A stretch of DNA of 64,000 nucleotides from a bacterium (lineage in GTDB: Bacteria; JACRDZ01; JAQUKH01), in contig JAQUKH010000002.1 in assembly GCA_028719205.1 (NCBI GenBank), positions 96,828 to 160,827 on the forward strand, given 5' to 3'. The notes under the pieces were generated by a model. It searched no databases, was not told the DNA's origin, and saw only the letters and a program-made list of their open reading frames with translations. Positions 22,216 to 64,000 of the stretch are shown one piece after another (position 1 is the first letter of the stretch; each line of letters starts with the position of its first letter). The position numbers and the translations under genes were made by a program.

Positions 22216-22236
22216 GAAAATTTTGTAGATGGGAAA

Positions 22237-24296: not shown

Positions 24297-24325
24297 TAAA
24301 AATATAAGTACAAGGAGGCTTGGAT

Positions 24326-38481: not shown

Positions 38482-38492
38482 AACGATCTCCT

Positions 38493-40852: not shown

Positions 40853-42214
40853 CTACCATTTAGATTTTAGAAAATACAATACATCGTAAAGCAAATCGCC
40901 GTTTTTTAAACTGCGTAAAAAACGATGCCAAAAATAAGAAGGACGCAAATAGTATTCGCGGAAAGCTCTTTTGTAATAAAGGCTGATTGTCGGCCAATCC
41001 AAATTTTCGTGTTGAAAGATAGGTTTTTCAATTTGATGAACAATATAAGACGGCCAATCCTGGTGTAATATTTTCCCTTTAGCTAATAGCTCTTGATAAT
41101 AATCTGTTCCCGGATACGGAATACAAATATCAAATTTAGCGATAGAAAGAGGAAGGCTTTTGGAAAATTGGATTGTTTTTTCCATTGATTCCTCTGTTTC
41201 TCCCGAAAGTCCGAAAATAAAAAAGCCAAAAGTGTCGATACCGGCATTGTTGGCGGCGGTTACCGCCCGTTTAATTTGCTCCAGTGTTGTTTTTTTACTG
41301 ATTTTTTCCAAAACTTTTTGATCGCCTGTTTCAATTCCGAACCCTGTTTGCCACAACCCTGCTTTTTTTGCGATCCGGAAAAATTCCTCATCTACTAAAT
41401 TAACCCGGACTCCATTGATAAGAGACCATGGAAATTTAAGGCCACGCCGGACTATTTCATTGCAAATCGCTTTCGCCCGTTTAATATCCTGGGTAAAGCT
41501 GTCATCGGCGATATGGATTTCTTTAAAGCCGCATTTAAGCATATATTCCATTTCGTCAACTACTCTATTTGTTGATTTCATGCGATAATCGGTCCCAAAA
41601 GTTAATTTACTGCAGAAATTACAACTGTATGCGCAGCCACGGCTTGTTTCAATATGTCCTACAGGATTAGCACGTGAAGATATCCGGGAATTTTTGTATT
41701 TTGTTAAGTCAAATAATTGCCATGCGGGAAATGGCAGACTGTCAAGATCAACTATTAATGGGCGTGCCGGAATAACACGCGGTGCAGATGATAACGGGCT
41801 TTTAAGTAAATCCGGTAAAACTAAGTCACCTTCGCCCAGTATGATAATATCAAAACATCCGGCTGCGGCAGCTTCTTCAGGCATTGCCGTGATATGAACC
41901 CCTCCGGCAATTGTTTTAACGGCCGGATATTTTTTCTTAACATTAGCCATTAAATCCCGAGTAATATTGTAAACAGGAGTTTTAATTGAGGCTGCCACAA
42001 TATCAGGCTGGAAACTGTCAATTTCTTCTGACAAAGATTGCCATGGGTCATTTACAAAATCCAGATCAATAATCCGTACGCTGTGATCCTTAATCAAATG
42101 TCCGGCAAGTGTGGCCAACGTCAAATTAGGATAACTTGGGGCAGCTATACGGACATTGGTTTTTAAATAAGTGATATTACGTGAAGGGGCATTAAAAAAT
42201 AGGATTTTAAACAT
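40853..42214 (-). CDS. B12-binding radical SAM enzyme (class B)
   Basis: N-terminal cobalamin-binding Rossmann segment (IAGGVHITAMPEE), CAYSCNFC CxxxCxxC motif. Start set at Met24 (MFKILFF), 1 nt after the stop of the upstream GT2. Confidence 0.8.
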   Translation of the reverse strand: MFKILFFNAPSRNITYLKTNVRIAAPSYPNLTLATLAGHLIKDHSVRIIDLDFVNDPWQSLSEEIDSFQPDIVAASIKTPVYNITRDLMANVKKKYPAVKTIAGGVHITAMPEEAAAAGCFDIIILGEGDLVLPDLLKSPLSSAPRVIPARPLIVDLDSLPFPAWQLFDLTKYKNSRISSRANPVGHIETSRGCAYSCNFCSKLTFGTDYRMKSTNRVVDEMEYMLKCGFKEIHIADDSFTQDIKRAKAICNEIVRRGLKFPWSLINGVRVNLVDEEFFRIAKKAGLWQTGFGIETGDQKVLEKISKKTTLEQIKRAVTAANNAGIDTFGFFIFGLSGETEESMEKTIQFSKSLPLSIAKFDICIPYPGTDYYQELLAKGKILHQDWPSYIVHQIEKPIFQHENLDWPTISLYYKRAFREYYLRPSYFWHRFLRSLKNGDLLYDVLYFLKSKW

Positions 42215-42215
42215 A

Positions 42216-42956
42216 TTAATTTTTTCTAAAAATAGCTGACTTATAGAACGATTTTGCCAGGATAAATAAAAATAATGTCCCAAAAGTTCCGAAGGAATAC
42301 TTTAAACAATTTTTTAAACTGGCGCCGCGTTTTTTCCCGGAATAGCAGGTTTCTACCGGAACCTGAGCGATCTTTATGTGGTTATAAACAGCTTGAACTA
42401 TGATTTCAAAACTAAAAAGATAATCATTTGAATTTGCTTCAAAATTTGATTTTTCCAGCAGTTCTTTTGTATATACCCGAAATCCCTGATGAAGGTCGTC
42501 AATTTTAATACCGAGCACTACTTCATCAATTTTGTTTAATATCCTGATAGGCAGGATCTTCCACGGGTACATTCCGTTTTTTCCAGGATTATCTCCGTTT
42601 GAAAAGCGGCTACCCAGCACAAGCCCGGCTCCCTTTTCAACTTCTCTTATTGCCGCCGGTATACTGGAAGGTTTGTATTCACCGTCAGGATGGATATCAA
42701 CAATAATTTCGGCTCCTTTTCCGAGAGCGATCTTGACTGCTTCTTTTATATTGCCCCCGTACCCCAGATTGACGGGATTTTGGTATGATTCAATACCTAA
42801 TTTTTTGGATAATTCAAAAGTATTATCATGAGAAAAATCATCAACCAGTATGATATCATCCACAAAATGTTTAGGAAATTCAGTATAAAACTTTTCCAGG
42901 GTTTTAGAAGCGTTATATGCTATAAAAATAGCAATTATTTTTTTTTTCTTTTCCAT
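42216..42956 (-). CDS. GT2-family glycosyltransferase
   Basis: IFIAYNASKTL, LVDDFSHDNT and a DxD-like VDIHPDGE. Start chosen at MEKKKKIIAIF. Confidence 0.7.
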   Translation of the reverse strand: MEKKKKIIAIFIAYNASKTLEKFYTEFPKHFVDDIILVDDFSHDNTFELSKKLGIESYQNPVNLGYGGNIKEAVKIALGKGAEIIVDIHPDGEYKPSSIPAAIREVEKGAGLVLGSRFSNGDNPGKNGMYPWKILPIRILNKIDEVVLGIKIDDLHQGFRVYTKELLEKSNFEANSNDYLFSFEIIVQAVYNHIKIAQVPVETCYSGKKRGASLKNCLKYSFGTFGTLFLFILAKSFYKSAIFRKN

Positions 42957-43089
42957 AAGGGGGAAGTTTATCATATTTACTAAACTTATGCAAATGTTTT
43001 ATTTGTGGTGAAAATCCGGATTACTTGCTATAAATTCAGTAATTATTTTTTTTCTTCCATGGAAGCGGTATATCATATATAATTAGCTA

Positions 43090-44025
43090 ATGCGATGTTT
43101 TATTTGTAGCAGTGAAAATCCTGATTACCTGTTTTCTACGAAAGATTATATTACAGGAGATACATTTTCGATTTTTAAATGTTCTAAATGCGGGAATTCT
43201 TTTACGGACCCTAAGCCGGAGGATATTGAGAAGTATTATTCAAAAAACTATTATGGAAAGCGCAAATCTTTTGCCGAGAATTTAATTAATTATTCAAGGC
43301 TGCAAAAAATTAATAGTTTGTTTGGAAGTAATACCAGGCCATTACCGTTGATCTTGGATGTTGGTTGTGGAAACGGCAGTTTTTTATCTCTTTTATCAAA
43401 AAGGGGATGGCCGGTTTGTGGAACTGAAGTCGCGCCCGAAAATAATTTCGCGTGTGAAGAACTAAATTCAAAAGTATTTAATAAAGATTTAATCAAATGT
43501 GAGCTTGAGGACAAAAAATTTGATATAATTACAATGTGGCACACTTTCGAGCATTTTTCTGAACCCGTGGATTATTTATTAGAGGCGGGAAGGATTTTAA
43601 AAGATGAAGGTGTTTTAATAATTGAAGTACCTAATTTCAAATCCTGGCAGGCAAGGTTGACCCGCGGTAACTGGTTTCACCTGGACGCGCCGAGGCATTT
43701 GGCGCATTATAACCCGGAGGGCGTCAGTTTCCTTCTGAATTCAACAGGATTTGAGGCGTTTAAAATTTCTCATATTTCTTTTATATATAGTTTGTTTGGA
43801 TTTATTCAAAGCATTATTAATATTTTTACAAAAAGAAATAATTTATTGTTTGATTTAATAAATAAAAAGATCAAAATAACCCGTATTAATATTAAAGACA
43901 TAATTATTACCTCTTTTTTAATTATCCCTGTATCATGCGTAAGTATTTTTGCTGTATTTTTGGAATCAATTTATAAAAGAGGGGGAATTGTTATTATATA
44001 CGCGCGCAAAAAGGAGCAAAATTAA
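43090..44025 (+). CDS. Class I SAM-dependent methyltransferase with N-terminal Zn-ribbon
   Basis: CFICSS...CSKCGNSF ribbon. LDVGCGNGSF SAM motif I. Confidence 0.75.
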   Translation: MRCFICSSENPDYLFSTKDYITGDTFSIFKCSKCGNSFTDPKPEDIEKYYSKNYYGKRKSFAENLINYSRLQKINSLFGSNTRPLPLILDVGCGNGSFLSLLSKRGWPVCGTEVAPENNFACEELNSKVFNKDLIKCELEDKKFDIITMWHTFEHFSEPVDYLLEAGRILKDEGVLIIEVPNFKSWQARLTRGNWFHLDAPRHLAHYNPEGVSFLLNSTGFEAFKISHISFIYSLFGFIQSIINIFTKRNNLLFDLINKKIKITRINIKDIIITSFLIIPVSCVSIFAVFLESIYKRGGIVIIYARKKEQN

Positions 44026-45245
44026 TGAAATCGTTAACAAGAGAAGAAAAAATAAGTTATATAAGTACAATAATCTTAATCGGATTTATGTGTACTTATA
44101 TTTATGATTACTGGATGGGGGCATATTTGGGTAAAAGCTATCCTTTTAATACCTTTTTATTCAAACCTTGGGATAGATTTAATGATTTTTTTACTCCTAT
44201 GAACATAGTTCTACGGGGTAATGGTAATCCTTATAATTTTATATCACCTGATTCCATCAATTCTCCTTTATATCATCTTATGGCAATTGGTTTTATGTAT
44301 ATAAACCCATTTTTATCTTTTATAGTATGTATTTTCGCTTTCATCATATTTTTTGTTTATGTAATCAGCAAAAATTTAGTTTTGGCAACTAGAATGGAAA
44401 CTTTTAAAAATGCGATCATTTTTTCATTTTTTACCGCTATTTTCCTTTTTTCTTTAGAAAGGAGCAATTATGAAATAATAATTTTTGTTTTGATATATTT
44501 TTTCCTTGAATTTTACAGAAAAAAAAATCTTATTACATGCGTAATAATCTTATCAGTTGCAATTGCACTTAAGGCCGCACCAGGAGTTCTTATTTTACTT
44601 TTTTTGGATGCGAAGCAGTATAAAGAAGCATTACTGACATTAGTAATTACATTAGCTTTAAATCTCCTCAGTTACTCGGTATTTACGGGAGGATTATGGC
44701 ATAATTTTCAAAATAATTTAATAAGTATGAAGCTTTATAGTAAAGCCTATGCCATGTCTATGGGAGGGGGCGTAGGTACGAATTCCTTATGGGGGGCCGT
44801 AAAAATATTAAGAGAATATTTTTTCAACTATATAAATATAGAAACTCTGTATTATGTGCATTATATTATTGCGTTTACAATTTTTGTTTCAGTTTCAGCT
44901 TATATATTAAAGATCGAGAAAGTATTTTGGAAAAAATTGTCTTTGATGATAATTATGATGAGTCTTTTACCTCATCATTCAGGATATCCTAAATTAATGC
45001 ATCTTTATTTCCCTATGTTTTTATTTATTAACAGCGGGGAGAAAGATAAATATGATCTGATATATACAGTTTTATTCGCGTTAATATTAATACCAAAAGC
45101 TTACTATCACTTTCCCTTTTTGCCGGAATTAAATGAAAGCGCTATTTTACTTCCGCTGTTTATGGTTTTATTTATGGGTTTTATTATATATGACGGATTC
45201 AGAACGTATAAAATAAAAGAAAAAACAAAAACTTGCATTGCGTAA
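44025..45245 (+). CDS. Polytopic integral membrane protein, putative GT-C-type glycosyltransferase (DUF2029/GT87-like)
   Basis: ~11 TM helices. Located in the glycan cluster next to the polyprenyl-P-sugar synthase. No soluble domain. Confidence 0.35.
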   Translation: MKSLTREEKISYISTIILIGFMCTYIYDYWMGAYLGKSYPFNTFLFKPWDRFNDFFTPMNIVLRGNGNPYNFISPDSINSPLYHLMAIGFMYINPFLSFIVCIFAFIIFFVYVISKNLVLATRMETFKNAIIFSFFTAIFLFSLERSNYEIIIFVLIYFFLEFYRKKNLITCVIILSVAIALKAAPGVLILLFLDAKQYKEALLTLVITLALNLLSYSVFTGGLWHNFQNNLISMKLYSKAYAMSMGGGVGTNSLWGAVKILREYFFNYINIETLYYVHYIIAFTIFVSVSAYILKIEKVFWKKLSLMIIMMSLLPHHSGYPKLMHLYFPMFLFINSGEKDKYDLIYTVLFALILIPKAYYHFPFLPELNESAILLPLFMVLFMGFIIYDGFRTYKIKEKTKTCIA

Positions 45246-45311
45246 GATACAAAACAGGGATTTTAAAAATTAATGGTAAAATAATGATTAACAAAAATGG
45301 AGATAAATAAA

Positions 45312-46088
45312 ATGAAGGTTGTTATTCTTTGCGGAGGAAAAGGGACAAGAATGAAGGAAGAAACTGAGTTTCGTCCCAAGCCTTTGGTAAATATTGGCGG
45401 GTATCCGATTATTTGGCATATTATGAAGATATACGCGCATTATGGATTTAAAGATTTTGTTCTTTGTCTTGGGTATAAAGGAAATATGATCAAGGAATAT
45501 TTTTTGAATTATGAAGCAATGAATAATGATTTTACCGTTTGTCTGGGCGCAAAAAATAAAATAAAATTTCATAGCAAACACGAAGAACACAATTGGAATG
45601 TAACGTTAGTTGATACCGGTGAAGAAGCAATGACAGGTGCAAGAGTGAAAAAAGTCGAAAAATATATTGATACTGATCTGTTTATGGTAACTTATGGTGA
45701 TGGAGTAGCTGACATTGATATAAGAAAATTGGTTAATTTCCATAATTCACACGGAAAAATCGGGACGATCACCGGAGTTCATCCCTCTTCACGTTTTGGA
45801 GAATTAATTATCAAAGAAAATAAAGTCAGTAAATTTTATGAAAAACCTCAGGTGAGCCAGGGCCTTATAAATGGAGGTTTTTTTGTTTTCAAAAAAGAAA
45901 TTTTTAAATATATTAAAGAAGATGAAAGCTGTCTTTTAGAAAAAGAACCATTAGAAACACTTGCCAAAGAAAGCAACTTAATGGCTTATCTTCATCTTGG
46001 ATTCTGGCAGTGCGTTGATACTTATCGGGAATTAGAGGTATTAAATGATTTATGGAAAACGCCTCATCCTCCATGGAAGGTTTGGTAA
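45312..46088 (+). CDS. rfbF: Glucose-1-phosphate cytidylyltransferase
   Basis: MKVVILCGGKGTRMKEETEFRPKPLVNIGGYPIIWHIMKIY is the canonical RfbF/DdhA N-terminus. Confidence 0.85.
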   Translation: MKVVILCGGKGTRMKEETEFRPKPLVNIGGYPIIWHIMKIYAHYGFKDFVLCLGYKGNMIKEYFLNYEAMNNDFTVCLGAKNKIKFHSKHEEHNWNVTLVDTGEEAMTGARVKKVEKYIDTDLFMVTYGDGVADIDIRKLVNFHNSHGKIGTITGVHPSSRFGELIIKENKVSKFYEKPQVSQGLINGGFFVFKKEIFKYIKEDESCLLEKEPLETLAKESNLMAYLHLGFWQCVDTYRELEVLNDLWKTPHPPWKVW

Positions 46089-46093
46089 AAAAT

Positions 46094-47086
46094 ATGGGAA
46101 GCAGCTTTTGGTTGAAAAAAAAGGTTCTTATTACAGGTTATGAAGGTTTTTTAGGTTCTAATTTAACACAGAATTTATTAAATCAAGGCGCGAAAATATG
46201 GGGCTTGGATATTAAAACCCGCCGAAAAGAAACTATCCTGTCAAAAAAAGAATTAAATAAAATTAAAATAATAAAAGGCAGTGTTGAAAATTTATCGCTT
46301 GTTTCTAAAATTATTAAAGAAAATAAAATTGAAATAGTTTTTCATTTAGCCGCCAGCGCTCTTGTCGGGAATTGTTTAAAAAATCCAGTCGAGGCATTTT
46401 CCACTAATATAGAAGGAACGTGGAATATCCTTGAGTCCTGTAGAAATAACAAACATATTAAAGCTATTATTATTGCTTCCAGTGATAAGGCGTATGGGAG
46501 TCAAAAGAAATTACCTTACCTGGAAAATACCCCGTTAGCAGGAGAACATCCCTATGATGTTTCAAAAAGCTGCGCGGATCTGATTGCTTATGCCTATTAT
46601 CACACATATGATATGCCGGTTGCGGTAACGCGCTGCGGCAACATTTATGGGCCGGGAGATTTTAATTTTTCCAGAATAATCCCCGAAACCGTAAAATGCG
46701 CGCTTTCGGGCAACAAACTTATGATTAGAAGTGACGGGAAGTTTGTACGGGATTATGTTTATGTCGGAGATATTGTCAATGGTTATATAATGCTCGCGGA
46801 ACAATTAGAAAAGAAAGATTTAAGGGGAGAGGCATTTAATTTCAGCGATGAAAATCCCATAAACGTAATAGAATTAGTTAAAAATATCTATAAGCAAGTG
46901 GGCGCGAAAACGAATTATATAATTCTTAACAAAGCAAAATATGAGATAAAGAATCAATATTTGGCATCCGCGAAGGCAAGAAAAATCCTTGGTTGGAAGC
47001 CGGAATACACTTTGAAAGATGGGATCGAGAGAACTATTGATTGGCATAAAAATAATTATGGATATTCAAAAAAATGTCCCTTATGA
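46094..47086 (+). CDS. rfbG: CDP-glucose 4,6-dehydratase
   Basis: KKVLITGYEGFLGSNL, SSDKAYG, YDVSKSC (SDR Yx3K) and overall RfbG/DdhB length. Confidence 0.8.
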   Translation: MGSSFWLKKKVLITGYEGFLGSNLTQNLLNQGAKIWGLDIKTRRKETILSKKELNKIKIIKGSVENLSLVSKIIKENKIEIVFHLAASALVGNCLKNPVEAFSTNIEGTWNILESCRNNKHIKAIIIASSDKAYGSQKKLPYLENTPLAGEHPYDVSKSCADLIAYAYYHTYDMPVAVTRCGNIYGPGDFNFSRIIPETVKCALSGNKLMIRSDGKFVRDYVYVGDIVNGYIMLAEQLEKKDLRGEAFNFSDENPINVIELVKNIYKQVGAKTNYIILNKAKYEIKNQYLASAKARKILGWKPEYTLKDGIERTIDWHKNNYGYSKKCPL

Positions 47087-47583
47087 ATGAAAATAAGAAA
47101 ACAATTGATCTATTGGAATCTTTAGTAAAAGACCCCTCTAAAGGCCTCCCCGAAGAAGTATTCCTTTTTTTAACCAGAATTACCCCCATGGTTAACGTTG
47201 ATTTGCTTATAAAAAATGAACAAAATCATACGCTTCTTACATGGAGAGATGATGCCTTTCACTCCGCCGGCTGGCATGTTCCGGGAGGTATTATAAGATA
47301 TAAAGAAACATTTTCTGACAGAATTAATGCTGTTGCCATGACCGAGCTTGGAGTCCGTGTAAAGTTCAAGAAGGCTCCATTGGTGCTGAATGAAGTTATT
47401 CATCCGACAATAAAAGTCCGGGGCCACTTTATTTCTTTGTTGTATGAGTGCGTATTAATAAGCCCCCTTAATAAAAATCTTGAATTTAAGGGAGGAACTC
47501 CCAAGCCGGGAGAATGGGCGTGGCACAGCAAATGTCCGGACAATATAATCTCAGCCCATGAAATGTATAGGAGTTTTATATGA
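47074..47583 (+). CDS. Nudix hydrolase, GDP-mannose mannosyl hydrolase (WcaH/NudD)-like
   Basis: Collinear with E. coli NudD from memory: TPMVNVDLLIKN vs TPLVSLDFIVEN, and GWHVPGGIIRYKETFSDRINAVAMTELGV vs [30 protein letters not shown]. Confidence 0.6.
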   Translation: MSLMNENKKTIDLLESLVKDPSKGLPEEVFLFLTRITPMVNVDLLIKNEQNHTLLTWRDDAFHSAGWHVPGGIIRYKETFSDRINAVAMTELGVRVKFKKAPLVLNEVIHPTIKVRGHFISLLYECVLISPLNKNLEFKGGTPKPGEWAWHSKCPDNIISAHEMYRSFI

Positions 47584-48491: not shown

Positions 48492-48516
48492 AAAGATCTA
48501 AATAAATATTCCAAAA

Positions 48517-49449: not shown

Positions 49450-49451
49450 TT

Positions 49452-50318: not shown

Positions 50319-50409
50319 TTCCAGTCCTCCCTTTTATTTTTTTTGGCGTTTCATTTCCCGCCGCCTATTATTCAATTATACATCATTTTAACTTTTTAAA
50401 CCTAAATAT

Positions 50410-51459: not shown

Positions 51460-51484
51460 ATAATACCCCCCCCTCTATTACTTT

Positions 51485-52549: not shown

Positions 52550-52580
52550 AAGTAATGCCCTTTATAATTCTATAATTGTT

Positions 52581-53702: not shown

Positions 53703-53713
53703 AATGATCCTCG

Positions 53714-55458: not shown

Positions 55459-55461
55459 AAT

Positions 55462-57279
55462 TTAGTTTTCTTCTTCTATCAAGGGGATATACATATTGGA
55501 CAAAAGCTCATCTCGATCCAAAAAAGGCCATTGATCTTCCAATGGTTTGGATACCATTGTTCCGTCTTTCTTTCGTTTTGAAGAAACCTTTGGGGATACC
55601 TTAAAATCAGGTATGACAAGAACATCACAGATGACCGGCCCGTCATAATCGAATACATCTTTGATTTTTGTTTCCAGTTCACTCGTATCATTAATTCTGA
55701 CTGCCTTTATTTTATAAGCTTCCGCGATAGAAATGATATCAGGCAATGTCAATCCTGAAGACGGGCCATTGCCTAAAAAATTACCATTAAAATGAGTTTC
55801 TTGCATTGTCCTGATTGATGAGTATCCGTTATTGTTCATTACAAAAATTTTAACAGGCAAATTTAATCTATGGAGTGTTTCCAGTTCCTGGATGTTCAAC
55901 TGGATGCCTCCATCACCCGCGATACAGATGGTTCTTTTTCCGCCATTCGCGATTGACGCGCTTATGCTTAAAGGAAGTTCAAAACCCATTGGGCCTAATC
56001 CATGATTAGTAAGGAACTTCTGATTTTTTTTGATCTTAAATGCCTGGAATGTATATTCCGCGGTGGTTCCGGCGCAACATGGAGAAATTATATCATCACT
56101 ATCAGCAATATGAGATATTAAATCTATTAATTGGTAAGGATTGACCAGGCCGGATTTTGTAAAATAATCTTTTCTGATAATAGGATATTTATTACGCCAT
56201 TCTTTTATTTTATCCTTCCATTTTGATATATCCCTGATCTTGATTTTATCAGATCTCTCTAATAATTCTTCCATTATCAATTTTGCGTCCGCGGCGATCT
56301 TTAAATCAACTTTAAAATTAAGTTTCTTTATTTCATTAGGGTCAATATCTATAACGATTTTTTTCGCGGCTCTTGCAAAAGATTTTGTATCAAATCCTGT
56401 TTGCGTGAAATCCAGCCTTGAACCGATCGATATCAAGAGATCAGAATTTTGAACCGCAAAATTCGCGGCACGTTCGCCCAATAACCCGCCTCTTCCCGCG
56501 TACAAGGGATGTTCTTCAGGAAATAAATCCATTGCTTTCCACGTTGGAATTACAGGGATACCTAATTTTATTATTAAATCAAAAAATATTTTTTTTGATT
56601 TTGAAATTTTTATCCCGTCTCCCGCGATTATTACAGGCCTTTCAGAATTATTTAACAATTTAATAATTTTATTTATTTTGTTATCGAATATTGAAATATC
56701 GGCCTTCTTTCCATTTAATTCCAATGGATCAAAACTTTTTAGATCCGTTTCTTCGATGATGCTTCCTTGTACATCCAATGGGATATCAAGCCATACAGGC
56801 CCGGGCCTTCCGCTCAATGCCAGATATAAAGCTTTTTCCAAATGGTATTTAATCATATCCGGCTCCATTACAGTAACAGAATATTTTGTAATTGATTGAA
56901 CCATTGATATGATATCAACTTCCTGGATCCCTAATTGGCGTATTTTTTTGCCTTTCATTATATCCGGCCTTTTAACCTGGCCCGAAAAAAACATACAAGG
57001 GATCGAGTCGATCCATGCCGCGCAAACTCCGGTGATCGCATTAGTGCCTCCGGGGCCGGTCGTAACCAAACCGACTCCGATATGCTCTGTATGCATCGCA
57101 TACGCTTCGGCAGCAATGGCAACAGATTGTTCATGAAGCATGCAAACAGGTTCAATATCTTTACATCTGGCAAGAGAATCAACTAAATGCATCGCGCCCC
57201 CGCCCGGCAAATAAAAAACATGCTTTACTTTCTGCCTGGTAATGAATTTTATAATATAATCTGATAACTTAATTTTCAT
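55462..57279 (-). CDS. Thiamine-diphosphate-dependent enzyme of the acetolactate-synthase large-subunit family (YerE-like candidate)
   Basis: N-terminal Pyr domain (FYLPGGGAMHL), central domain, C-terminal PP domain (GDGG...NN TPP-binding motif). Confidence 0.8.
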   Translation of the reverse strand: MKIKLSDYIIKFITRQKVKHVFYLPGGGAMHLVDSLARCKDIEPVCMLHEQSVAIAAEAYAMHTEHIGVGLVTTGPGGTNAITGVCAAWIDSIPCMFFSGQVKRPDIMKGKKIRQLGIQEVDIISMVQSITKYSVTVMEPDMIKYHLEKALYLALSGRPGPVWLDIPLDVQGSIIEETDLKSFDPLELNGKKADISIFDNKINKIIKLLNNSERPVIIAGDGIKISKSKKIFFDLIIKLGIPVIPTWKAMDLFPEEHPLYAGRGGLLGERAANFAVQNSDLLISIGSRLDFTQTGFDTKSFARAAKKIVIDIDPNEIKKLNFKVDLKIAADAKLIMEELLERSDKIKIRDISKWKDKIKEWRNKYPIIRKDYFTKSGLVNPYQLIDLISHIADSDDIISPCCAGTTAEYTFQAFKIKKNQKFLTNHGLGPMGFELPLSISASIANGGKRTICIAGDGGIQLNIQELETLHRLNLPVKIFVMNNNGYSSIRTMQETHFNGNFLGNGPSSGLTLPDIISIAEAYKIKAVRINDTSELETKIKDVFDYDGPVICDVLVIPDFKVSPKVSSKRKKDGTMVSKPLEDQWPFLDRDELLSNMYIPLIEEEN

Positions 57280-57466
57280 TTTTGCTTTTCATCTTTCTAT
57301 TTCAATATTTTTATAATATTAAAAGATTATAATACAATAAAAAATAGTTGTCAATAAAGTATTGTTGGTGACAGTACATGTATGTTATAATTGAAAAACC
57401 ATTAATATTTAGAGATATAATTTTATCGGAAATATTTTCGCTTATTAAGGAAATCATAGAGCAAAA

Positions 57467-58780
57467 ATGGGAACTAAATTACGAAAAGAAATATTATCAA
57501 AGGTTAAAGAATTTTATAAAATAAAAGATAAGGAAAAATTTGTCCCGGGTAAAACTTTAATTAATTACGCGGGTCGCGTATATGATGAAAAAGAATTAAT
57601 TAATTTAATTGACGCTTCATTGGATTTCTGGCTGACAACCGGCAGATACGCACTGGAATTTGAAAAGAAACTTGCCTATTTTCTCAAAATAAAATATTGT
57701 TTATTAACAAACTCCGGTTCATCAGCCAATCTTTTAGCGGTTTCCGCTTTAACCTCGCCTCTGTTGAAAGAGAAGCGGTTAAAACCGGGAGATGAGGTTA
57801 TTACTACGGCTTGCGGTTTCCCGACAACTCTTAACCCGATATTACAGAATAATTTAGTTCCTGTTTTTATTGATATAAATTTGGGTACATATGATATTCA
57901 GGTTGATAAAATTGAGAAAGCGATCACTAAAAAAACAAAGGCGATTTTTGTTGCCCATACACTTGGTAATCCATTTAATTTAGATAAAATATTAAAACTG
58001 GCTGATAAATACGGTTTATGGCTTCTCGAGGATAATTGTGATGCTCTGGGCTCAAGGTATAAGGGAAAATATACGGGAACATTCGGGCATATTTCTACCG
58101 CCAGTTTTTATCCCGCGCATCATATTACAATGGGGGAGGGTGGGGCAGTTTTAACAAATGACCCGTTGCTGAAAAAAATAATTCTTTCTTTTCGTGATTG
58201 GGGAAGGGATTGTTTCTGTGAACCCGGGCACGATAATACCTGCGGGAAAAGATTCTCTCAGCAATTTGGGGAATTGCCGCCTGGTTATGATCATAAATAT
58301 GTTTATTCGCATATAGGTTATAATTTGAAAGTAACTGATATGCAGGCGGCTATAGGATGCGCCCAATTAGAAAAGCTGCCGGGATTTATTGAAGCACGTA
58401 AAAATAATTTCACGGCTTTGTATAATCACTTGAGAAAATATAATAAATTTTTAGTTCTTCCGGAAGCAACAGAAAATTCTGAACCGAGCTGGTTCGGGTT
58501 TCCTATTCTTGTTAAACAGGGTGTGCCGTTCAGCCGTTCGGATATTGTTAATTATCTTGAAAAAAATAGAATAGCTACAAGGATGCTTTTCGGCGGCAAC
58601 CTGACAAAGCAGCCTGCTTACCTTAAATCGAAATATCGCGTTTCCGGCGGGTTGAAAAATACAGATTTAGTGATGAATAACCTGTTTTGGATCGGGGTGT
58701 ATCCGGGTTTAACTGAAGAAAAAATAGATTACATTGAAAAAATATTTAAACAATTTTTTAATCTACAGGAAAAACGGTAA
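57467..58780 (+). CDS. rfbH: CDP-6-deoxy-D-xylo-4-hexulose-3-dehydrase (E1, RfbH/DdhC), DegT family
   Basis: 437 aa. The usual Lys is replaced by His in the DegT active-site block (FYPAHHITMGEGG). Cys cluster RDWGRDCFCEPGHDNTCGKRF typical of the E1 [2Fe-2S] site. Confidence 0.8.
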   Translation: MGTKLRKEILSKVKEFYKIKDKEKFVPGKTLINYAGRVYDEKELINLIDASLDFWLTTGRYALEFEKKLAYFLKIKYCLLTNSGSSANLLAVSALTSPLLKEKRLKPGDEVITTACGFPTTLNPILQNNLVPVFIDINLGTYDIQVDKIEKAITKKTKAIFVAHTLGNPFNLDKILKLADKYGLWLLEDNCDALGSRYKGKYTGTFGHISTASFYPAHHITMGEGGAVLTNDPLLKKIILSFRDWGRDCFCEPGHDNTCGKRFSQQFGELPPGYDHKYVYSHIGYNLKVTDMQAAIGCAQLEKLPGFIEARKNNFTALYNHLRKYNKFLVLPEATENSEPSWFGFPILVKQGVPFSRSDIVNYLEKNRIATRMLFGGNLTKQPAYLKSKYRVSGGLKNTDLVMNNLFWIGVYPGLTEEKIDYIEKIFKQFFNLQEKR

Positions 58781-61071
58781 TGGAAAATAATATAACTGAT
58801 AAAACAGCTGGTTTTGAAAAATGGATTCCTTTTATTTTGTATATAATTGTTACAATTATATATGCTTTCCGGTTTTTTAAACCGGGACAAATGATTTTTG
58901 GGCATGACATAATTTTGGGTAATCAATATGGCGATGTTTTTGTAAATGGACTATTAAAAACAGGTGAGATTCCTTTCTGGAATCCGTATAGTTACAGCGG
59001 TACGCCTTGTTTTGGCGCTTTAGGCCCGTTTTTTTATCCAACAAATATTATTTATTCTTTGTCTGGCATTTCCCTGCCTTTGTATTATTTATGTGAATAT
59101 ATGCTATGTATCTTTTTGAGCGGGTCTTTTATGTATTTATACGCTAAAAACATAGGGCTATCAAAAACAAGCAGTTTCCTGGCAGGTATATTTTTTATGT
59201 TTTCAGGAAATATTATTACTTTAATGAATGCGGGGCATATGCTCAATATTCAAGCTATTACATACATACCGATTATATTGTATTTTTTTGATAAAGGGAT
59301 CCAGAAAGATACAATATTTTATTTTCTTCTCACGGCCTGTTTTTTAGGTATCCAAAGCTACACTGCAGGATTTCAAATAGTGGCTTATACGGCCGTGTTT
59401 TTGTTTTTATATCTGCTTTTGAAAATTGTTTTTGAAAAAAAATCTTATAATTTAATCGGATATTTTATGCTTATAGCGGTACTTGTTCCTTTAATTGCCG
59501 CGGTATACGTTATCCCTTCTAATTATTTTTTTAAGTTTTCTTATCGCGCGGCCCCAACTTATGAATATTTCACTTCATGGTCTTTTCCTCCAATGGAAGC
59601 TATTACTTTTTTACTGCCCAGATTTTTTGGTTTTATGGAAGCAACCTATTGGGGAATTTATCAATTCAGGATAACAAGTGATTATTTTGGGATTCTTCCT
59701 ATTATTTTAGCTTTTCTATCAGTATTTTTTCTGATAAAAGACAAAAGGGTATTATGTTTTACAATATTATCTATTATTAGTTTATTACTCTCCCTCGGAG
59801 GGTATACCCCGCTTTACAAAATACTCTATCATTTTCCAATTATTTCATCATTCCGCAATCCAAGCCGGTGGTTGGTATTTTTTACATTTTTTACAGTATT
59901 ATTAGCCGGTTTTGGTATTGATTTTATTATAAACTTTGCTGACAAAAAATACAAAAAAGAAAAATTTATACAATTTAACGCCTTTAAAATAATATTAATC
60001 ATTTTGTCTGCATGTTTTTTAATGATCTGGGTCTGGTTTTCATTAAATAATAAAATAATAATTCCAAATATGCAGACTTGGGAACTAATAAGAAAAAAGA
60101 CTAATTATCTAAATATATATGTACTCTATAAAATGATTGCCGGAGACCTGTTCAGGTTAGCGATGCTTTTTACAGCCAGTACGGTTTTTATTTTGCTGGC
60201 TTTTTATGGTAAGATCAGCAAATACGTTTTAACCGGATGTTTGCTGGTTTTATTTTTAGCAGATATGTGGTATATCGGCTTGTTGTCAGTCAGAACTGTG
60301 CCGATTCCTAAGCCGGATATCAGGCAGGAAGAAACAATTGATTTTTTAAAACAGGATAGTTCCTTGTATCGAGTACTTCCCGTTGATGGTTTTAGTTCTG
60401 AAAATTGGTTTATGGGCTCCAAAATTCAAAGCGTGAAGGGTTATTTAATTAGTTTAAAGAATTATCATGACGCGATGGACAATGGGGTATTTAATAATAT
60501 AAATTTTTTAAATTTACTAAATGTAAAATATATTTTAACTACAAGAAATATAGATTATCCGGTATTTAAATTAGTTTATAACCAGAATATAAATATCTAT
60601 CAAAATCTGGCAGTGTCGCCCCGGGCTTCTTTATTTAATAAAATAGAAGTTAATAAAGACAGATCAGATTATATGAGTAAACTTATGTCCCCTGATTTTA
60701 ATATAAAGGAAAAGCTGATTATTAACGAAGATTTTGAAGAAAAATTAGATACTGTATCGTTTAACGGGGACGAGATAAATATAACGGCATATCATCCTAA
60801 CTATATTACCCTTGATGTTAATAATCCGGGTAATTCTGTTCTTCTCATGAGTGAAATTTATTATCCTGAATGGAAGGCTACAGTTGATGGTAAGGAATCT
60901 AAGATATATCAGGCAGATGAGTTATTCCGGGCTGTATATTTAACAAAAGGATCCCATCATGTGGAATTTCACTATAGCCCTAAATTGCTTTATATCGGAA
61001 CAGTTATATCTATTATAACTATTTTTTCTATTTTAATATTTTTGATCAGATATAAGATCAACTTAAAATAA
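58780..61071 (+). CDS. YfhO-family polytopic membrane protein (putative glycan/glycopolymer glycosyltransferase) with C-terminal extracytoplasmic domain
   Basis: ~13 TM helices, then a ~250-aa soluble domain and a terminal TM. YfhO-like architecture. Confidence 0.55.
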   Translation: MENNITDKTAGFEKWIPFILYIIVTIIYAFRFFKPGQMIFGHDIILGNQYGDVFVNGLLKTGEIPFWNPYSYSGTPCFGALGPFFYPTNIIYSLSGISLPLYYLCEYMLCIFLSGSFMYLYAKNIGLSKTSSFLAGIFFMFSGNIITLMNAGHMLNIQAITYIPIILYFFDKGIQKDTIFYFLLTACFLGIQSYTAGFQIVAYTAVFLFLYLLLKIVFEKKSYNLIGYFMLIAVLVPLIAAVYVIPSNYFFKFSYRAAPTYEYFTSWSFPPMEAITFLLPRFFGFMEATYWGIYQFRITSDYFGILPIILAFLSVFFLIKDKRVLCFTILSIISLLLSLGGYTPLYKILYHFPIISSFRNPSRWLVFFTFFTVLLAGFGIDFIINFADKKYKKEKFIQFNAFKIILIILSACFLMIWVWFSLNNKIIIPNMQTWELIRKKTNYLNIYVLYKMIAGDLFRLAMLFTASTVFILLAFYGKISKYVLTGCLLVLFLADMWYIGLLSVRTVPIPKPDIRQEETIDFLKQDSSLYRVLPVDGFSSENWFMGSKIQSVKGYLISLKNYHDAMDNGVFNNINFLNLLNVKYILTTRNIDYPVFKLVYNQNINIYQNLAVSPRASLFNKIEVNKDRSDYMSKLMSPDFNIKEKLIINEDFEEKLDTVSFNGDEINITAYHPNYITLDVNNPGNSVLLMSEIYYPEWKATVDGKESKIYQADELFRAVYLTKGSHHVEFHYSPKLLYIGTVISIITIFSILIFLIRYKINLK

Positions 61072-62479
61072 GGTCTTTTATTACTACAAAGGCTATTTTT
61101 ATTTTATTTTGGAGATTAAAATAAGTACTAAGGTCAAAAATCCGCTGGATAATATACTTTGGAGATAAATAGAATCGTCTGAATGCTTTCTTTTGGAAAT
61201 TTTCCAGTATTTCTTTAGAAAGCCCGTGTGGAATATATACCGGCAGGGGTTTTCGGCTGTACATATAATCCTCCCAGGCGGCATTTGATACTAATCCCTC
61301 TTTTTGCGCGTAAGCGAATAAGGGTGAACCGGGGAGTATATACGTGATATTAAAGAGCGCGTAAGTAGGGGATAGTTCACACGCGAAACTTATGGTTCTT
61401 TCCAGATCATCAAGAGTTTCCGTAGGATGCCCGAACATAAAAAAAGATGTGGTTTCGATACCTATTTTGCGGCACCACTTGAAGGCCTGACGGAAGGCAT
61501 CATCATGGATCTTTTTATTCAGGACGTAACGAACCCTTTCCGAACCCGCTTCTACCCCAAAAGAAATTTTGATACAACCGGACTTATGCATTAATTTTAG
61601 CAATTTCTCGTCTACCAGATTAGCCCTGGTTTGGCAGCCCCATTTTATTTTTATACCTTTTTCTATTATCAGGTTGCACAGCTTGGTTACATTTTCTTTA
61701 CGCATCGTAAAAGTATCATCTTCAAAATTTATATATTTTACTTTAAATTTATTTTTTACTTCAATAATTTCTTCGATAATATTTTCAGCACTGCGGAAAC
61801 GGCAAATTTTTCCTACTGAAGGGCGGGAGCAATATATACAATTAAACGGACAGCCGCGTGATGTGACCATGGAGGTGATAAGCCCATTAATAACCGGGCT
61901 GAAATATTTTTCATTAGGTAATAAATGCCTGGCAGGAAACGTGATCGCATCAAGGTTTGGAGTAGCATCCCGCTCATTAACAACAAGTTCTCCATCTTTC
62001 AGGTAGATTAATCCTTTTATTTGGCTCAGGTCCTGTTTTTCCCGGAGGATGTGTTTACAAAGCTGAACCAAACCATGATCAGCTTCACCTATAAAACCGA
62101 ACTGCAAACCAAGTTTTTTTATTAATTCGGGTTCTACAGAGATATGGGCTCCTCCAAGGATAATAATAATTTTGGGAAATTCCTGTTTTATTTTTTGTAT
62201 CAAAGCGTAAACAGCCCTTAGCGTCATGGTTGTTACAGTTATTCCTACTAAAGGAGGCGCTTCTTCTTTTATTTGTTGCATTATTTCATCTTCAGTTAAG
62301 AAGGAGGCTGAAGCTTCAATGATCTTTGCAGAAAAGCCGTTTTTCTCAAGAGACGCGGCTAAATAAGCCAATCCCAAATGGGGATAATTTACATAAAAAC
62401 CTTCATTTCTTTTTTTAGTTTTGGTTTTTATATTATCTGTATAACTATATGGAGGATTGATAAAAACAAAATCTGTCAT
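61058..62479 (-). CDS. B12-binding radical SAM enzyme (class B)
   Basis: B12-binding segment (ILGGAHISVEPE). CPFNCIYC motif. Confidence 0.8.
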   Translation of the reverse strand: MTDFVFINPPYSYTDNIKTKTKKRNEGFYVNYPHLGLAYLAASLEKNGFSAKIIEASASFLTEDEIMQQIKEEAPPLVGITVTTMTLRAVYALIQKIKQEFPKIIIILGGAHISVEPELIKKLGLQFGFIGEADHGLVQLCKHILREKQDLSQIKGLIYLKDGELVVNERDATPNLDAITFPARHLLPNEKYFSPVINGLITSMVTSRGCPFNCIYCSRPSVGKICRFRSAENIIEEIIEVKNKFKVKYINFEDDTFTMRKENVTKLCNLIIEKGIKIKWGCQTRANLVDEKLLKLMHKSGCIKISFGVEAGSERVRYVLNKKIHDDAFRQAFKWCRKIGIETTSFFMFGHPTETLDDLERTISFACELSPTYALFNITYILPGSPLFAYAQKEGLVSNAAWEDYMYSRKPLPVYIPHGLSKEILENFQKKAFRRFYLSPKYIIQRIFDLSTYFNLQNKIKIAFVVIKDLILS

Positions 62480-63958
62480 TTATTTTACCTTTTTGTTAGT
62501 TTCTTTTCCAAGCGTCTTATTTCTTATAATAAAAAAAATGTACTTAAAAAATCCTGTCATAAAAACAGGATTTTTAATAAAAAACCAGATATACCGTTTA
62601 AAAAAAACTTTCGGGTTACGGAATAAAATATTAAAATGGTATGTGACATATTTACGGGAAACCATTTTATCTATTTCCGCGGAAGTAAAGTCTTTAGTGT
62701 TTATATAACAGGCGGCGTACTCAATATTATTATAATCATAATCATTGGTAAGATACTTTTTTTCTTTGCAGATATCATATAGCTCTGTGCCGGGGAGAGG
62801 GGTAGCGATCAAAAACATAGCATGATCAAGTTTGAGCTCATCAGCGAGAGCAAATGTTTTCTTTATATCTTCTTTTGTTTCTCCCGGAAATCCGCTTACA
62901 AAGAAAGCGCTGGTTGCTATCTTCAGTTTCTTCATGATTTTAACTATATTTTTAATATGTTCAATATTACACGGCTTGCGAATTATATTTTTCAGTACAT
63001 TTTCATCCCCGCTTTCAACCGCGAGGGTTAGTTCGTAACAGCCGCTTTCTTTTAAAACGGTAAGCAGTTCTTCATCAAGCGTCCATGCCGCGACTCCCTG
63101 CGGCGTGCACCATTTTATATCTAAATTCAGTTCCTTTAGTTTTGAAAATATACTCATGGCTCTTTTTTTATTTAAAGTTAAATTATCGTCCAGAAAATGA
63201 AGTTCTTTGATATTATAGGTATCTTTAAGGAATTTTATTTCTTCTATAACATTTTCAGGGGAACGGGTCCTGTATCTGTTTCCCCAGTGTTTGGTTGTAG
63301 CGCAAAAAACACAGTGGCCGCTGCAGCCCCTCGATGTGATCATAGAAGTATTCGGTTTTCTCAAGGGAGTGGTTGCCTGGGGGAGATTGATCTCCAGATA
63401 TTTTTTCATATTTAAGAGGTGCCGTGCCGGGAAAGGAATGGAATCCAGGTCCAGAATAAAACTATTTTTTGGGTTGACTCCCACTTGTCCGTTCTGACGA
63501 AAAGCCAAACCGTCCAGAGTTGAGTAATCCCTGCCGGATTCAATGCACTTAATCAATTCCAAAACAGTATTTTCTCCCTCTCCAATAACGATAAAATCAA
63601 TATTTTTATCCTGTTCCAGTATTTCTTTTGAAAAAACAGAAGGATGTTCCCCTCCGGCCATAGTAATTATATCCGGGTTATATTCTTTTGCCGCTTTGCA
63701 TACAAATTGCAGATTTTGGTACTGGGGAGAAAAAAGACAGCTTACACCGACAATATCGGGCTTAAATTGCTGCATATGCTGGATTAACTCTGAATAGGTT
63801 AACCCATAGCGGTAATGATTTTTATTAATTTGCTCCTCGGCGTAAAATCCTTCTAAAGCGGCATCAATAATTTTAACCGTGTATCCGTTTTTTTCAAGAA
63901 CAGCCGCGATATATGCTAAACCTAAAGGAGGCACAGCCCGCTTAATTCTTCCTTTCAT
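62480..63958 (-). CDS. B12-binding radical SAM enzyme (class B)
   Basis: B12-binding segment (TMAGGEHPSVF). CSGHCVFC motif. Its start abuts another minus-strand reading frame that continues past the window end (TAATG overlap at 63956-63960). Confidence 0.8.
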   Translation of the reverse strand: MKGRIKRAVPPLGLAYIAAVLEKNGYTVKIIDAALEGFYAEEQINKNHYRYGLTYSELIQHMQQFKPDIVGVSCLFSPQYQNLQFVCKAAKEYNPDIITMAGGEHPSVFSKEILEQDKNIDFIVIGEGENTVLELIKCIESGRDYSTLDGLAFRQNGQVGVNPKNSFILDLDSIPFPARHLLNMKKYLEINLPQATTPLRKPNTSMITSRGCSGHCVFCATTKHWGNRYRTRSPENVIEEIKFLKDTYNIKELHFLDDNLTLNKKRAMSIFSKLKELNLDIKWCTPQGVAAWTLDEELLTVLKESGCYELTLAVESGDENVLKNIIRKPCNIEHIKNIVKIMKKLKIATSAFFVSGFPGETKEDIKKTFALADELKLDHAMFLIATPLPGTELYDICKEKKYLTNDYDYNNIEYAACYINTKDFTSAEIDKMVSRKYVTYHFNILFRNPKVFFKRYIWFFIKNPVFMTGFFKYIFFIIRNKTLGKETNKKVK

Positions 63959-64000
63959 TAAAGTGTAAGGAGGAGAAATAAGTAATATTTTGTTGATCTT

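Follow-up and report, generated by a model that had tools for sequence, protein, structure and literature searches.

Radical SAM genes in a candidate island of glycan-decoration modules: a YerE-type CDP-sugar cassette and two modules with B12-domain enzymes

YerE-like enzymes, which use thiamine diphosphate (ThDP), transfer the acyl unit from a 2-oxo acid to C-4 of cytidine diphosphate (CDP)-4-keto-3,6-dideoxyglucose (PMC9306805, PMC12247030). In the erwiniose, caryophyllose and gastriose pathways a neighbouring aldolase makes the functionalised 2-oxo acid, which is passed to the YerE-like enzyme and then to a reductase (PMC9306805), and more than 200 YerE-type clusters have been predicted in silico (PMC12247030). 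Radical enzymes go unmentioned in a published ThDP review. Here we describe a 64,000-nt stretch of bacterial DNA (contig JAQUKH010000002.1, positions 96,828 to 160,827; "the window" throughout), in which a gene set of this kind stands among five genes for radical S-adenosylmethionine (SAM) enzymes. To our knowledge, almost all radical SAM chemistry on sugars has been described in antibiotic pathways (BtrN, DesII, AprD4, GenK), and no description of such a radical-SAM glycan pathway was found in the open-access literature. We favour, with some reservation, the reading that the region is a glycan-decoration island. It would consist of three modules that are conserved independently of one another and have each recruited oxygen-sensitive radical SAM enzymes: M1 (42974-40853 and 43090-45245), M2 (45297-58780), which would make a rare sugar, an acyl-branched CDP-3,6-dideoxyhexose, and M3 (58780-64000 and beyond).

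A first-pass annotation, made from the letters of the window, had pointed to three B12-binding and two Cys-rich radical SAM genes within about 23 kb of sugar genes. Pfam and motif scans and the listing of open reading frames (ORFs) bore this out for 40853-64000. The B12-binding (PF02310) and Radical_SAM (PF04055) domains occurred together in 40853-42283(-), 61058-62479(-) and 62480-63958(-), and matches to Radical_SAM and SPASM were found in 50410-51459(-) and 51485-52549(-). All five proteins have a single CX3CX2C motif, located at residues 194, 210 and 212 in the B12-domain proteins B12_1, B12_2 and B12_3. The genes are the following.

40853..42214, minus strand: B12_1, B12-domain radical SAM protein, 453 aa, CAYSCNFC at residue 194 (M1)
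50410..51459, minus strand: rSAM_A, BtrN-like twitch radical SAM protein, 349 aa (M2)
51485..52549, minus strand: rSAM_B, radical SAM protein with MoaA-like core and twitch-like C-terminus, 354 aa (M2)
61058..62479, minus strand: B12_2, B12-domain radical SAM protein by Pfam, 473 aa (M3)
62480..64000, minus strand: B12_3, B12-domain radical SAM protein, 511 aa in full (M3)

The ATG of B12_1 at 42214 was supported by orthologs of 454-466 aa, which align across 100% of the 453-aa form. Exact matches to the window proteins came from short contigs of the same run, 3.2 and 11.8 kb in length. The start of B12_3 (MINKRKINK...) was read from L001, a 3.2-kb contig of the same sample that reaches to about 64073, 73 nt past the window. 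It lies 57 nt past the window, 19 codons upstream of the former start, so that the last gene does continue beyond the window, as had been expected. Five radical SAM genes in 23 kb represent an enrichment, with a Poisson P of 7e-6 to 4e-3 for assumed, not measured, background rates of 0.25 to 1 radical SAM gene per 23 kb. The first 40 kb of the window contained no more homologs of the five proteins.

Classification by profile models, which the first-pass annotation had proposed as a check, placed all five proteins outside the curated NCBIfam families, the GenK type included, as none reached a cutoff. The top matches were BchE for B12_1 (169 against a cutoff of 481), HpnJ for B12_2 (191 bits against 578), the Sden_1168 P-methyltransferase family for B12_3 (344 bits against 575, the best ratio among the three B12-domain proteins), the tungsten-cofactor maturase for rSAM_A (97 against 380) and MoaA for rSAM_B (107 against 325). 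The curated cutoffs that the B12-domain proteins failed to reach included those for BchE, HpnJ, HpnR, PhpK/Sden_1168, TsrM-type enzymes, KedN5, AprD4, BzaD, the ladderane lipid enzymes and the methylases of methyl-coenzyme M reductase. Pfam scans of the 64-kb window revealed no partner genes for bacteriochlorophyll, hopanoid, ladderane or molybdopterin synthesis or for ribosomally synthesised and post-translationally modified peptides (RiPPs). Membership in the BchE, HpnJ or lipid pathways was ruled out by the sub-cutoff scores together with the absence of partner genes. A known non-glycan subfamily with its cognate partners adjacent, which would have spoken for an unrelated pathway, was thus looked for in the window and not found. 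Since their synteny with sugar genes is conserved in other genomes, our sequence comparisons support that the radical SAM genes are part of the glycan locus and did not come to lie there by chance, in agreement with the setting originally assigned to them.

Besides rSAM_A and rSAM_B, module M2 comprises these genes.

45297..46088, plus strand: RfbF, glucose-1-phosphate cytidylyltransferase (TIGR02623, 346 bits, above the cutoff of 300)
46052..47086, plus strand: RfbG, CDP-glucose 4,6-dehydratase-like (top NCBIfam match TIGR02622)
47074..47583, plus strand: NUDIX-like protein, 169 aa (weak Pfam NUDIX match)
47580..48491, plus strand: NAD-dependent epimerase/reductase, 303 aa (Pfam Epimerase)
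48517..49449, plus strand: GT2c, GtrB-like polyprenyl-phosphate glycosyltransferase of family 2 (GT2), with two C-terminal transmembrane (TM) helices
49452..50318, minus strand: NeuB-like synthase condensing phosphoenolpyruvate (PEP), 288 aa, no SAF domain (Pfam NeuB, PF03102 only)
52581..53702, minus strand: FkbM-family methyltransferase (Pfam Methyltransf_21, TIGR01444)
53714..54712, minus strand: GFO/IDH/MocA oxidoreductase (Pfam)
54712..55458, minus strand: short-chain dehydrogenase (SDR; Pfam adh_short), 3 nt downstream of the ThDP enzyme gene
55462..57279, minus strand: YerE-like ThDP carboligase, 605 aa, three TPP_enzyme domains
57467..58780, plus strand: RfbH/E1, CDP-6-deoxy-4-hexulose 3-dehydrase of the DegT family (NF011936, 736 bits, above the cutoff of 423)

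The best match of the ThDP enzyme in the PDB was JanthE (8RPH, 410 bits), followed by 5AHK (287 bits), while the best plant acetohydroxyacid synthase (AHAS) reached 276. 5AHK carries the label acetolactate synthase II; we take it to be PpYerE, a YerE-like enzyme. JanthE is a characterised YerE-like carboligase (PMC12188165). The protein stayed below every AHAS cutoff in NCBIfam, and no small-subunit gene was present. Acetolactate synthase was rejected as a function on the basis of the sub-cutoff scores, the closeness to JanthE and the CDP-sugar context with RfbF, RfbG and RfbH, and from its sequence we classified the protein as a YerE-like carboligase. RfbH has the Cys pattern C191-X57-C249-X-C251-X7-C259 and the motif SFYPAHH at 213-219, which places a His at the position of the aminotransferase Lys. 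An iron-sulfur Cys motif and the replacement by His of the Lys that forms the Schiff base with pyridoxal phosphate are the signature of E1.

M2 shares with the YerE-type pathways (yersiniose A, erwiniose, caryophyllose, gastriose; PMC9306805, PMC12247030) the CDP-glucose/E1 route, the YerE-like carboligase, an adjoining reductase, a separate C-C-bond enzyme for the 2-oxo acid and a dedicated glycosyltransferase. Based on sequence, the gene set is supported as a match to the published scheme of aldolase, YerE-like enzyme and reductase, in which the NeuB-like synthase would take the place of the aldolase and the SDR is a candidate YerF-like side-chain ketoreductase. The published pathways use a class II pyruvate aldolase, whereas M2 has a PEP-dependent NeuB-like synthase, which is joined by a phosphatase of the haloacid dehalogenase (HAD) family in relatives; no pyruvate aldolase of the HpaI/BphI type was present, and the NeuB-like gene occupies the aldolase position, which is where M2 departs most from the known scheme. 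M2 also differs by the lack of the E3 reductase and by conserved cassette genes for an FkbM protein and for two or three radical SAM enzymes of the twitch type. Relative to the YerE-type pathway, the proposed NeuB-type donor route, the presumed tailoring by twitch radical SAM enzymes and the missing E3 are what is new in M2. The proposal of an undescribed pathway held insofar as no paper describing one like it was found, but M2 is a recognisable variant of the synthesis of YerE-type acyl-branched CDP-3,6-dideoxyhexoses.

The NeuB-like gene adjoins the pair of Cys-cluster genes, as had been noted before. Its product scored 258 against a cutoff of 400 for NeuB and 208 against 340 for PseI, and the PDB matches to SpsE and NeuB span the TIM-barrel part only. 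No gene for a CMP-sugar synthetase was found in the locus. A genuine sialic-acid pathway was rejected in view of the sub-cutoff scores, the missing SAF domain and the missing CMP-synthetase gene. In relatives of the cassette the NeuB-like gene is followed by a gene for a KdsC-type HAD phosphatase and then by the ThDP enzyme gene, with a HAD-SIS fusion instead in one relative. The combination of a NeuB-like synthase with a KdsC-type HAD protein is the gene logic of the synthesis of 3-deoxy-D-manno-octulosonic acid (KDO) and 2-keto-3-deoxynononic acid (KDN). Because the order NeuB-like, HAD, ThDP enzyme resembles this logic, we infer by analogy that the NeuB-like synthase may supply a 3-deoxy-2-ulosonic acid as the donor. 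Among the other genes of M2, the top NCBIfam matches of the GFO/IDH/MocA protein were inositol 2-dehydrogenase and UDP-N-acetylglucosamine 3-dehydrogenase, both below cutoff, and homologs of the 169-aa NUDIX-like protein with 47-52% identity were present in four related cassettes (L004, L019, L020, L025).

The two Cys-cluster enzymes had been labelled SPASM-type, and this label had to be corrected. Seven Cys are invariant in 28 orthologs of rSAM_A (C38/C42/C45 and C256/C274/C319/C322); the family profile matched BtrN with an E value of 6e-18, and the four C-terminal Cys aligned to the CX18C...CX2C of BtrN. A Foldseek search with an AlphaFold2 (AF2) model (pLDDT 89) gave BtrN as top match (4M7T, E 3e-13), followed by DesII, SuiB and BlsE, and the core matches DesII by sequence as well as by fold. 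The top PDB match of rSAM_B was MoaA. In 21 orthologs of rSAM_B C53/C57/C60 and C265/C283/C318 are invariant, and a fourth C-terminal Cys is variable. The seven-Cys SPASM motif for two auxiliary clusters was not found in either protein, with four C-terminal Cys in rSAM_A and three plus the variable one in rSAM_B; with only three to four conserved C-terminal Cys both proteins look twitch-like, with one auxiliary cluster in rSAM_A and possibly also in rSAM_B. The Pfam SPASM model also covers twitch domains, which explains the matches to both proteins. Since its four auxiliary Cys align with those of BtrN and its top fold match is BtrN, we assigned rSAM_A, by alignment and model, to the twitch enzymes related to sugar-modifying radical SAM proteins and not to the two-cluster SPASM enzymes.

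With BtrN (2-deoxy-scyllo-inosamine dehydrogenase of butirosin synthesis) and DesII (desosamine synthesis) rSAM_A shares the abridged core, the C-terminal twitch and the carbohydrate context. It differs from them by a low identity of about 17-18%, by being 80-100 aa longer than BtrN, and by its substrate, presumably a CDP-sugar instead of an aminocyclitol or a TDP-aminosugar; its pathway would lead to a cell-surface glycan, while the BtrN and DesII pathways lead to antibiotics. The cross-linking chemistry that had been considered for the Cys-rich enzymes did not find support, but the likeness of the twitch type to BtrN and DesII suggests oxidation, dehydration or epimerisation, which may act on the branched CDP-sugar or its side chain. 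A role as RiPP maturases was rejected for the Cys-cluster enzymes because of the glycan context and because the gaps are too small for precursor genes. A fusion of rSAM_A to a family 4 glycosyltransferase (GT4) exists (P0488) and, like the matches to BtrN and DesII, speaks for a sugar as substrate.

A scan of one genome per species gave 78 loci, and tblastn with the window proteins detected an rSAM_A relative in 77 of them; the counts are limited by the 10-kb flanks, by truncated contigs and by the thresholds (E 1e-10, coverage of at least 50%). A homolog of the YerE-like ThDP enzyme was located at most 6.2 kb from the rSAM_A relative in 50 of the 77 loci (median 2.2 kb), and RfbH-like genes stood beside rSAM_A relatives in 31 of the 77. 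For the 15 loci in which rSAM_A was at least 50% identical, we found rSAM_B in all 15, the ThDP enzyme in 14, and the NeuB-like and FkbM genes in 10 each. These sequence data assign rSAM_A and rSAM_B to the core of the M2 cassette. GT2c had homologs of 45-55% identity in 31/77 loci; its top PDB match was GtrB sll0501 (5EKP, 181 bits), followed by ArnC.

Homologs of rSAM_A with 50-72% identity were found in the same cassette in Clostridium chromiireducens, in Lentisphaerae and on a contig labelled Parabacteroides. Carriers of rSAM_A include Victivallaceae, Elusimicrobia, Syntrophaceae, Synergistaceae, Thiorhodococcus, Desulfovibrionaceae, Omnitrophota and Thermoleophilia and, at lower identity, Lachnospiraceae, Selenomonas, Pectinatus, Acidobacteriota and many Alphaproteobacteria; the family amounts to 753 clusters (50% identity) at E<=1e-30. 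Among cultivable species, Selenomonas artemidis, Pectinatus haikarae and Rhodoblastus acidophilus have rSAM_A relatives of a more distant kind. In Clostridium chromiireducens (L003) an M2-type cassette with three twitch/SPASM radical SAM enzymes ends beside a flagellin gene (15897-16733), an adjacency that points to flagellin glycosylation.

In the proposed route, RfbF, RfbG and E1/RfbH would produce CDP-4-keto-3,6-dideoxyglucose, a step supported by homology, and the NeuB-like synthase would condense PEP with an aldehyde to a 3-deoxy-2-oxo acid. The YerE-like enzyme, as its family and context suggest, would decarboxylate this acid, if it is indeed the donor, and transfer the acyl unit onto C-4, after which the adjacent SDR may reduce the side-chain ketone. 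rSAM_A with its obligate partner rSAM_B would then act on unactivated positions by radical chemistry, as an oxidation, a dehydration or an epimerisation, the FkbM protein may add an O-methyl group, and GT2c would load the branched sugar onto the lipid carrier. M1 and M3, together with genes past the window, would tailor other lipid- or nucleotide-linked sugars. In the logic common to the modules, synthesis and tailoring of a sugar would take place in the cytoplasm, a small GT2 would attach it to polyprenyl phosphate, and a multi-TM glycosyltransferase of the GT-C type would transfer it on the outer side of the membrane.

The same combination of a small GT2 and a multi-TM GT-C enzyme is known from three-component glycosylation (GtrB/GtrA/GtrV, CsbB/GtcA/YfhO, PpgS/Rv3779, PgfS/PgfM1; PMC7389260, PMC11092751). 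The island differs from these systems in having radical SAM and methyltransferase genes placed between its GT2 and GT-C genes. Its GT-C enzymes are YfhO-like and GT87-like, with 7-11 TM segments according to Pfam and hydropathy. In M1 these genes accompany B12_1; the last line gives a further small GT2 gene whose membership in the island is uncertain.

42216..42974, minus strand: GT2b, small GT2, 252 aa, 1 nt upstream of B12_1 (Pfam)
43090..44025, plus strand: MT23, class I SAM methyltransferase, 311 aa (Pfam Methyltransf_23)
44025..45245, plus strand: GT-C membrane glycosyltransferase, GT87-like (Pfam), about 7 TM segments (hydropathy scan)
39918..40634, minus strand: GT2a, DPM1/PpgS-like small GT2, 238 aa (Pfam Glycos_transf_2)

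The tight coupling of B12_1 to a GT2 gene was confirmed, with 1 nt between the GT2b stop and the B12_1 start. GT2b resembles polyprenyl-phosphate sugar synthases: its top NCBIfam match was PpgS, and its sole PDB match was the dolichyl-phosphate mannose (Dol-P-Man) synthase 5MLZ. The arrangement of GT2, B12 enzyme, class I methyltransferase and GT-C was identical in locus L171, where the B12_1 ortholog is 77% identical, the GT2 gene overlaps the B12 gene, and a divergent Methyltransf_23 gene is followed by the GT-C gene. Other full-length B12_1 orthologs, 57-64% identical, were found in Omnitrophota, Elusimicrobia, Aureabacteria and Daviesbacteria. MT23 homologs adjoin the B12_1 orthologs in L010, L012 and L171, a GT2-methyltransferase fusion occurs in L011, and GT-C genes of the PMT_2 or STT3 type stand at the equivalent position in L010, L012 and L171. 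The core of B12_1 ortholog, MT23-like and GT-C genes was also present in Elusimicrobia, Daviesbacteria and Omnitrophica. A gene for a giant surface-type protein of 3751 aa with Kelch repeats (L010, 1-5569) flanks one relative of M1 and may encode an acceptor. For GT2a the top NCBIfam matches were AglJ, a Dol-P-hexose transferase and PpgS, all below cutoff. The GT2a stop directly abuts the bshC start, which leaves the left boundary of the island unclear.

M3 has one gene in the window besides B12_2 and B12_3.

58780..61071, plus strand: YfhO-like GT-C glycosyltransferase, 763 aa, about 11 TM segments (Pfam YfhO)

Its product also gave weak NCBIfam matches to PgfM1/PgfM2, and it is a member of M3 that is possibly the transferase for M2 as well. 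B12_2 and B12_3 are 32% identical to each other. Their tandem is conserved in L007 (78% and 80% identity), preceded by genes for DUF362, a methyltransferase, a 252-aa methyltransferase-like protein, a SPASM radical SAM protein and a GT2. In L093 a single operon contains YfhO, GT2, SPASM radical SAM, methyltransferase, B12, two methyltransferase-like genes and DUF362; here the B12_2 ortholog is 51% identical and the YfhO homolog that heads the operon 38% identical. No CDP-sugar genes were found near the M3 genes in L007 or L093. By analogy with these two loci, the region probably continues past 64 kb in the same way, which would add a sixth radical SAM gene. In L007 a gene for a 2828-aa surface-type protein with beta-helix/NosD repeats (1-4974) flanks the M3 relative and may specify an acceptor.

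The B12_3 family comprises more than 6000 homologs, including fusions to NTP_transferase. In L008 (8001-10313) and L009 (622-2934) a 770-aa protein combines a sugar-1-phosphate nucleotidyltransferase with a B12_3-like part (47% identity). This fusion gene sits beside STT3 in a heptose-like cassette with GHMP kinase, SIS, HAD and transaldolase genes, on contigs that are probably archaeal, a context that suggests radical modification of a nucleoside diphosphate (NDP)-heptose-like sugar. In an Omnitrophica locus (L172, 3936-8401) three consecutive B12-domain radical SAM genes (516, 494 and 466 aa) are set among DegT aminotransferase, epimerase, ATP-grasp and HAD genes; thus, glycan loci with several B12 radical SAM enzymes recur.

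The chemistry of the B12-domain enzymes was considered separately. The first-pass annotation had reasoned from their class B type to C-methylation, and this was not established: for each of the three, the nearest protein of solved structure is AprD4, which does not methylate, and true methylases come next. AprD4 was the best PDB sequence match of B12_1, B12_2 and B12_3 (73-92 bits). It was also the top Foldseek match (TM-score 0.71/0.76) of an AF2 model of B12_3 (pLDDT 90), followed by MgmA and TsrM, with CysS and TokK also among the matches; the model superposes on AprD4, MgmA, TsrM and TokK. AprD4 is a sugar 1,2-diol dehydratase that does not need cobalamin. The enzymes might accordingly be cobalamin-independent or non-methylating, either AprD4-like diol dehydratases or ring-forming or ring-contracting enzymes like HpnJ and BchE, the top NCBIfam matches of B12_2 and B12_1, and methylation could be left to the class I methyltransferases that are already present in every module. 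We regard this as rather unlikely, although it is far from negligible. True methylases follow AprD4 closely in the fold search, the best curated family of B12_3 is a P-methyltransferase family, and all family matches lie so far below cutoff that none is diagnostic. Most characterised proteins with the B12-domain radical SAM architecture are methylases. The architecture itself was confirmed by sequence and model, which makes methylation plausible, and C-methylation by the B12-domain enzymes is our leading guess. With the known class B enzymes (AprD4, MgmA, TsrM, TokK, CysS, PhpK/Sden_1168, HpnJ, BchE) the three proteins share the Rossmann B12-type domain and the barrel with CX3CX2C. They differ in their partners, which are GT2, GT-C and class I methyltransferase genes instead of antibiotic, phosphonate, hopanoid or pigment genes.

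The first-pass annotation had seen the five enzymes as one system, in which all of them act on a single hyper-modified sugar that is multiply C-methylated, rearranged or cross-linked. It is true that the genes are all packed into 23 kb, with junctions that are short or overlap, that RfbH of M2 and YfhO of M3 are translationally coupled, and that B12-domain radical SAM genes, non-orthologous to those of the window, stand inside an M2-type cassette in 12/77 loci, for example L005. The conservation in other genomes, however, made a single pathway improbable. Elsewhere the orthologs of B12_1 and of B12_2/B12_3 keep their own GT2, methyltransferase and GT-C genes and lack CDP-sugar or ThDP genes, and the M2 cassette is mostly found without orthologs of B12_1, B12_2 or B12_3, as in Clostridium, Lentisphaerae, Elusimicrobia, Syntrophaceae, Synergistaceae, Chromatiaceae and Actinomycetota. 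The number of transferase genes in the locus (three GT2, two GT-C) also suggests several separate transfers.

Several points count against the reading as three modules with an acyl-branched CDP-sugar as the product of M2. The start of YfhO overlaps the RfbH stop, which may mean a functional link between M2 and M3 in this genome, and the M3 genes past 64000 are assigned by analogy. RfbG reached 230 bits for TIGR02622, below the curated cutoff of 278. The window lacks the HAD phosphatase found beside the NeuB-like gene in relatives and has the SDR and GFO genes instead, which makes the 2-oxo acid donor uncertain. No gene for a flippase of the GtrA/GtcA type was found, and in 39918-64000 every ORF of at least 100 aa is assigned and no gap exceeds 218 nt. 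The limits of the co-occurrence counts named above apply here as well. Finally, no E3 reductase (the iron-sulfur flavoprotein RfbI/DdhD) was detected in the Pfam-scanned ORFs of the window or in cassettes L003-L005. An E1/RfbH without E3 in these places leaves the electron donor of the 3-deoxygenation unexplained.

This lack of E3 would fit a different role of the twitch enzymes, in which RfbH and rSAM_A form a deoxygenation pair like DesI/DesII, or the radical SAM enzymes replace E3, and thus act in a core step and not in late tailoring. The likeness of the rSAM_A core to DesII in sequence and fold and the RfbH-like genes in the 31 loci mentioned are in line with this idea, which we nevertheless consider quite improbable. 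RfbH has the complete E1 signature, with His for Lys and the 2Fe-2S Cys motif, and should dehydrate alone; E1 can be reduced by general cellular reductases; and rSAM_A tracks the ThDP enzyme more closely than it tracks RfbH. It is hardly credible that the radical SAM genes serve lipid, pigment, cofactor or RiPP pathways and are merely co-located, as the names of the top NCBIfam matches (BchE, HpnJ, the ladderane-lipid enzyme, MoaA, the tungsten-cofactor maturase) and an IspH-UbiA fusion gene 2.4 kb from B12_1 might suggest, since these matches are 2- to 6-fold under the cutoffs, partner genes of such pathways are missing from the 64 kb, GT2, GT-C, methyltransferase and NDP-sugar genes remain their neighbours in different phyla, fusions to NTP_transferase and GT4 exist, and gaps of at most 218 nt leave no space for conserved ORFs of the size of precursor peptides.

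The first 40 kb of the window contain housekeeping genes (SMC, FtsY, RtcB, polyamine genes, GltX, Rho, BacA, bshABC). The GC content falls to 0.30 at 44-46 kb from 0.35-0.44 in the housekeeping part, in keeping with a glycan island that was exchanged horizontally. The bacillithiol genes bshA (GT4), bshB (PIG-L) and bshC (34799-39917) are split by the IspH-UbiA gene, a single ORF at 36733-38481(+) in which IspH/LytB (residues 4-283) is fused to a UbiA-family prenyltransferase (377-553). With bshB on one side and bshC on the other, this gene is 2.4 kb away from the island, and a link to the supply of the polyprenyl carrier is conceivable. A BacA/UppP undecaprenyl-pyrophosphate phosphatase is encoded at 30183-30986(+). 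The polyamine cluster at 21171-25198(+) has two spermidine-synthase paralogs (39% identical), an S-adenosylmethionine decarboxylase and a decarboxylase of the ornithine/diaminopimelate type; it is preceded by a gene for an HTH-cupin regulator and suggests a longer or branched polyamine. The 485-aa ORF at 19251-20708(+) was ruled out as a second RtcB, as it encodes a multihaem c-type cytochrome, which is consistent with an anaerobic respiratory lifestyle. Just upstream of SMC, genes for a Bro-N protein and a TIR-domain protein (350 aa) at 10071-12159(+) may be a defence or mobile insert.

The enzyme classes of BtrN, DesII, AprD4 and GenK thus occur here in common and conserved cell-surface glycosylation modules, whose carriers include Omnitrophota, Elusimicrobia, bacteria of the candidate phyla radiation (CPR), Lentisphaerae, Clostridia, Proteobacteria and archaea. 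Two of the modules, M1 and M3, represent an uncharacterised but widely conserved kind of GT2/GT-C glycosylation unit that contains B12-domain radical SAM enzymes. We tentatively propose, as possible rather than probable, that a widespread and undescribed tailoring of surface sugars by radical SAM enzymes exists in anaerobic and uncultivated bacteria and archaea. A pair or trio of twitch enzymes would remodel YerE-type CDP-sugars with a NeuB-type ulosonic side chain to unseen higher-carbon branched sugars, and the B12-domain enzymes would act on sugars linked to polyprenyl phosphate or nucleotides, C-methylating or otherwise functionalising their unactivated carbons ahead of transfer by the GT-C enzymes. 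If this is true, organisms that still escape cultivation would carry new sugar structures on their surfaces, flagella or pili, the scheme for acyl-branched sugars would be extended by a NeuB-type donor route, and the enzymes would offer new biocatalysts that functionalise C-H bonds of nucleotide- or lipid-linked sugars. Clostridium chromiireducens, with its cassette beside flagellin, is a cultivable carrier, and the question is directly testable in this species.

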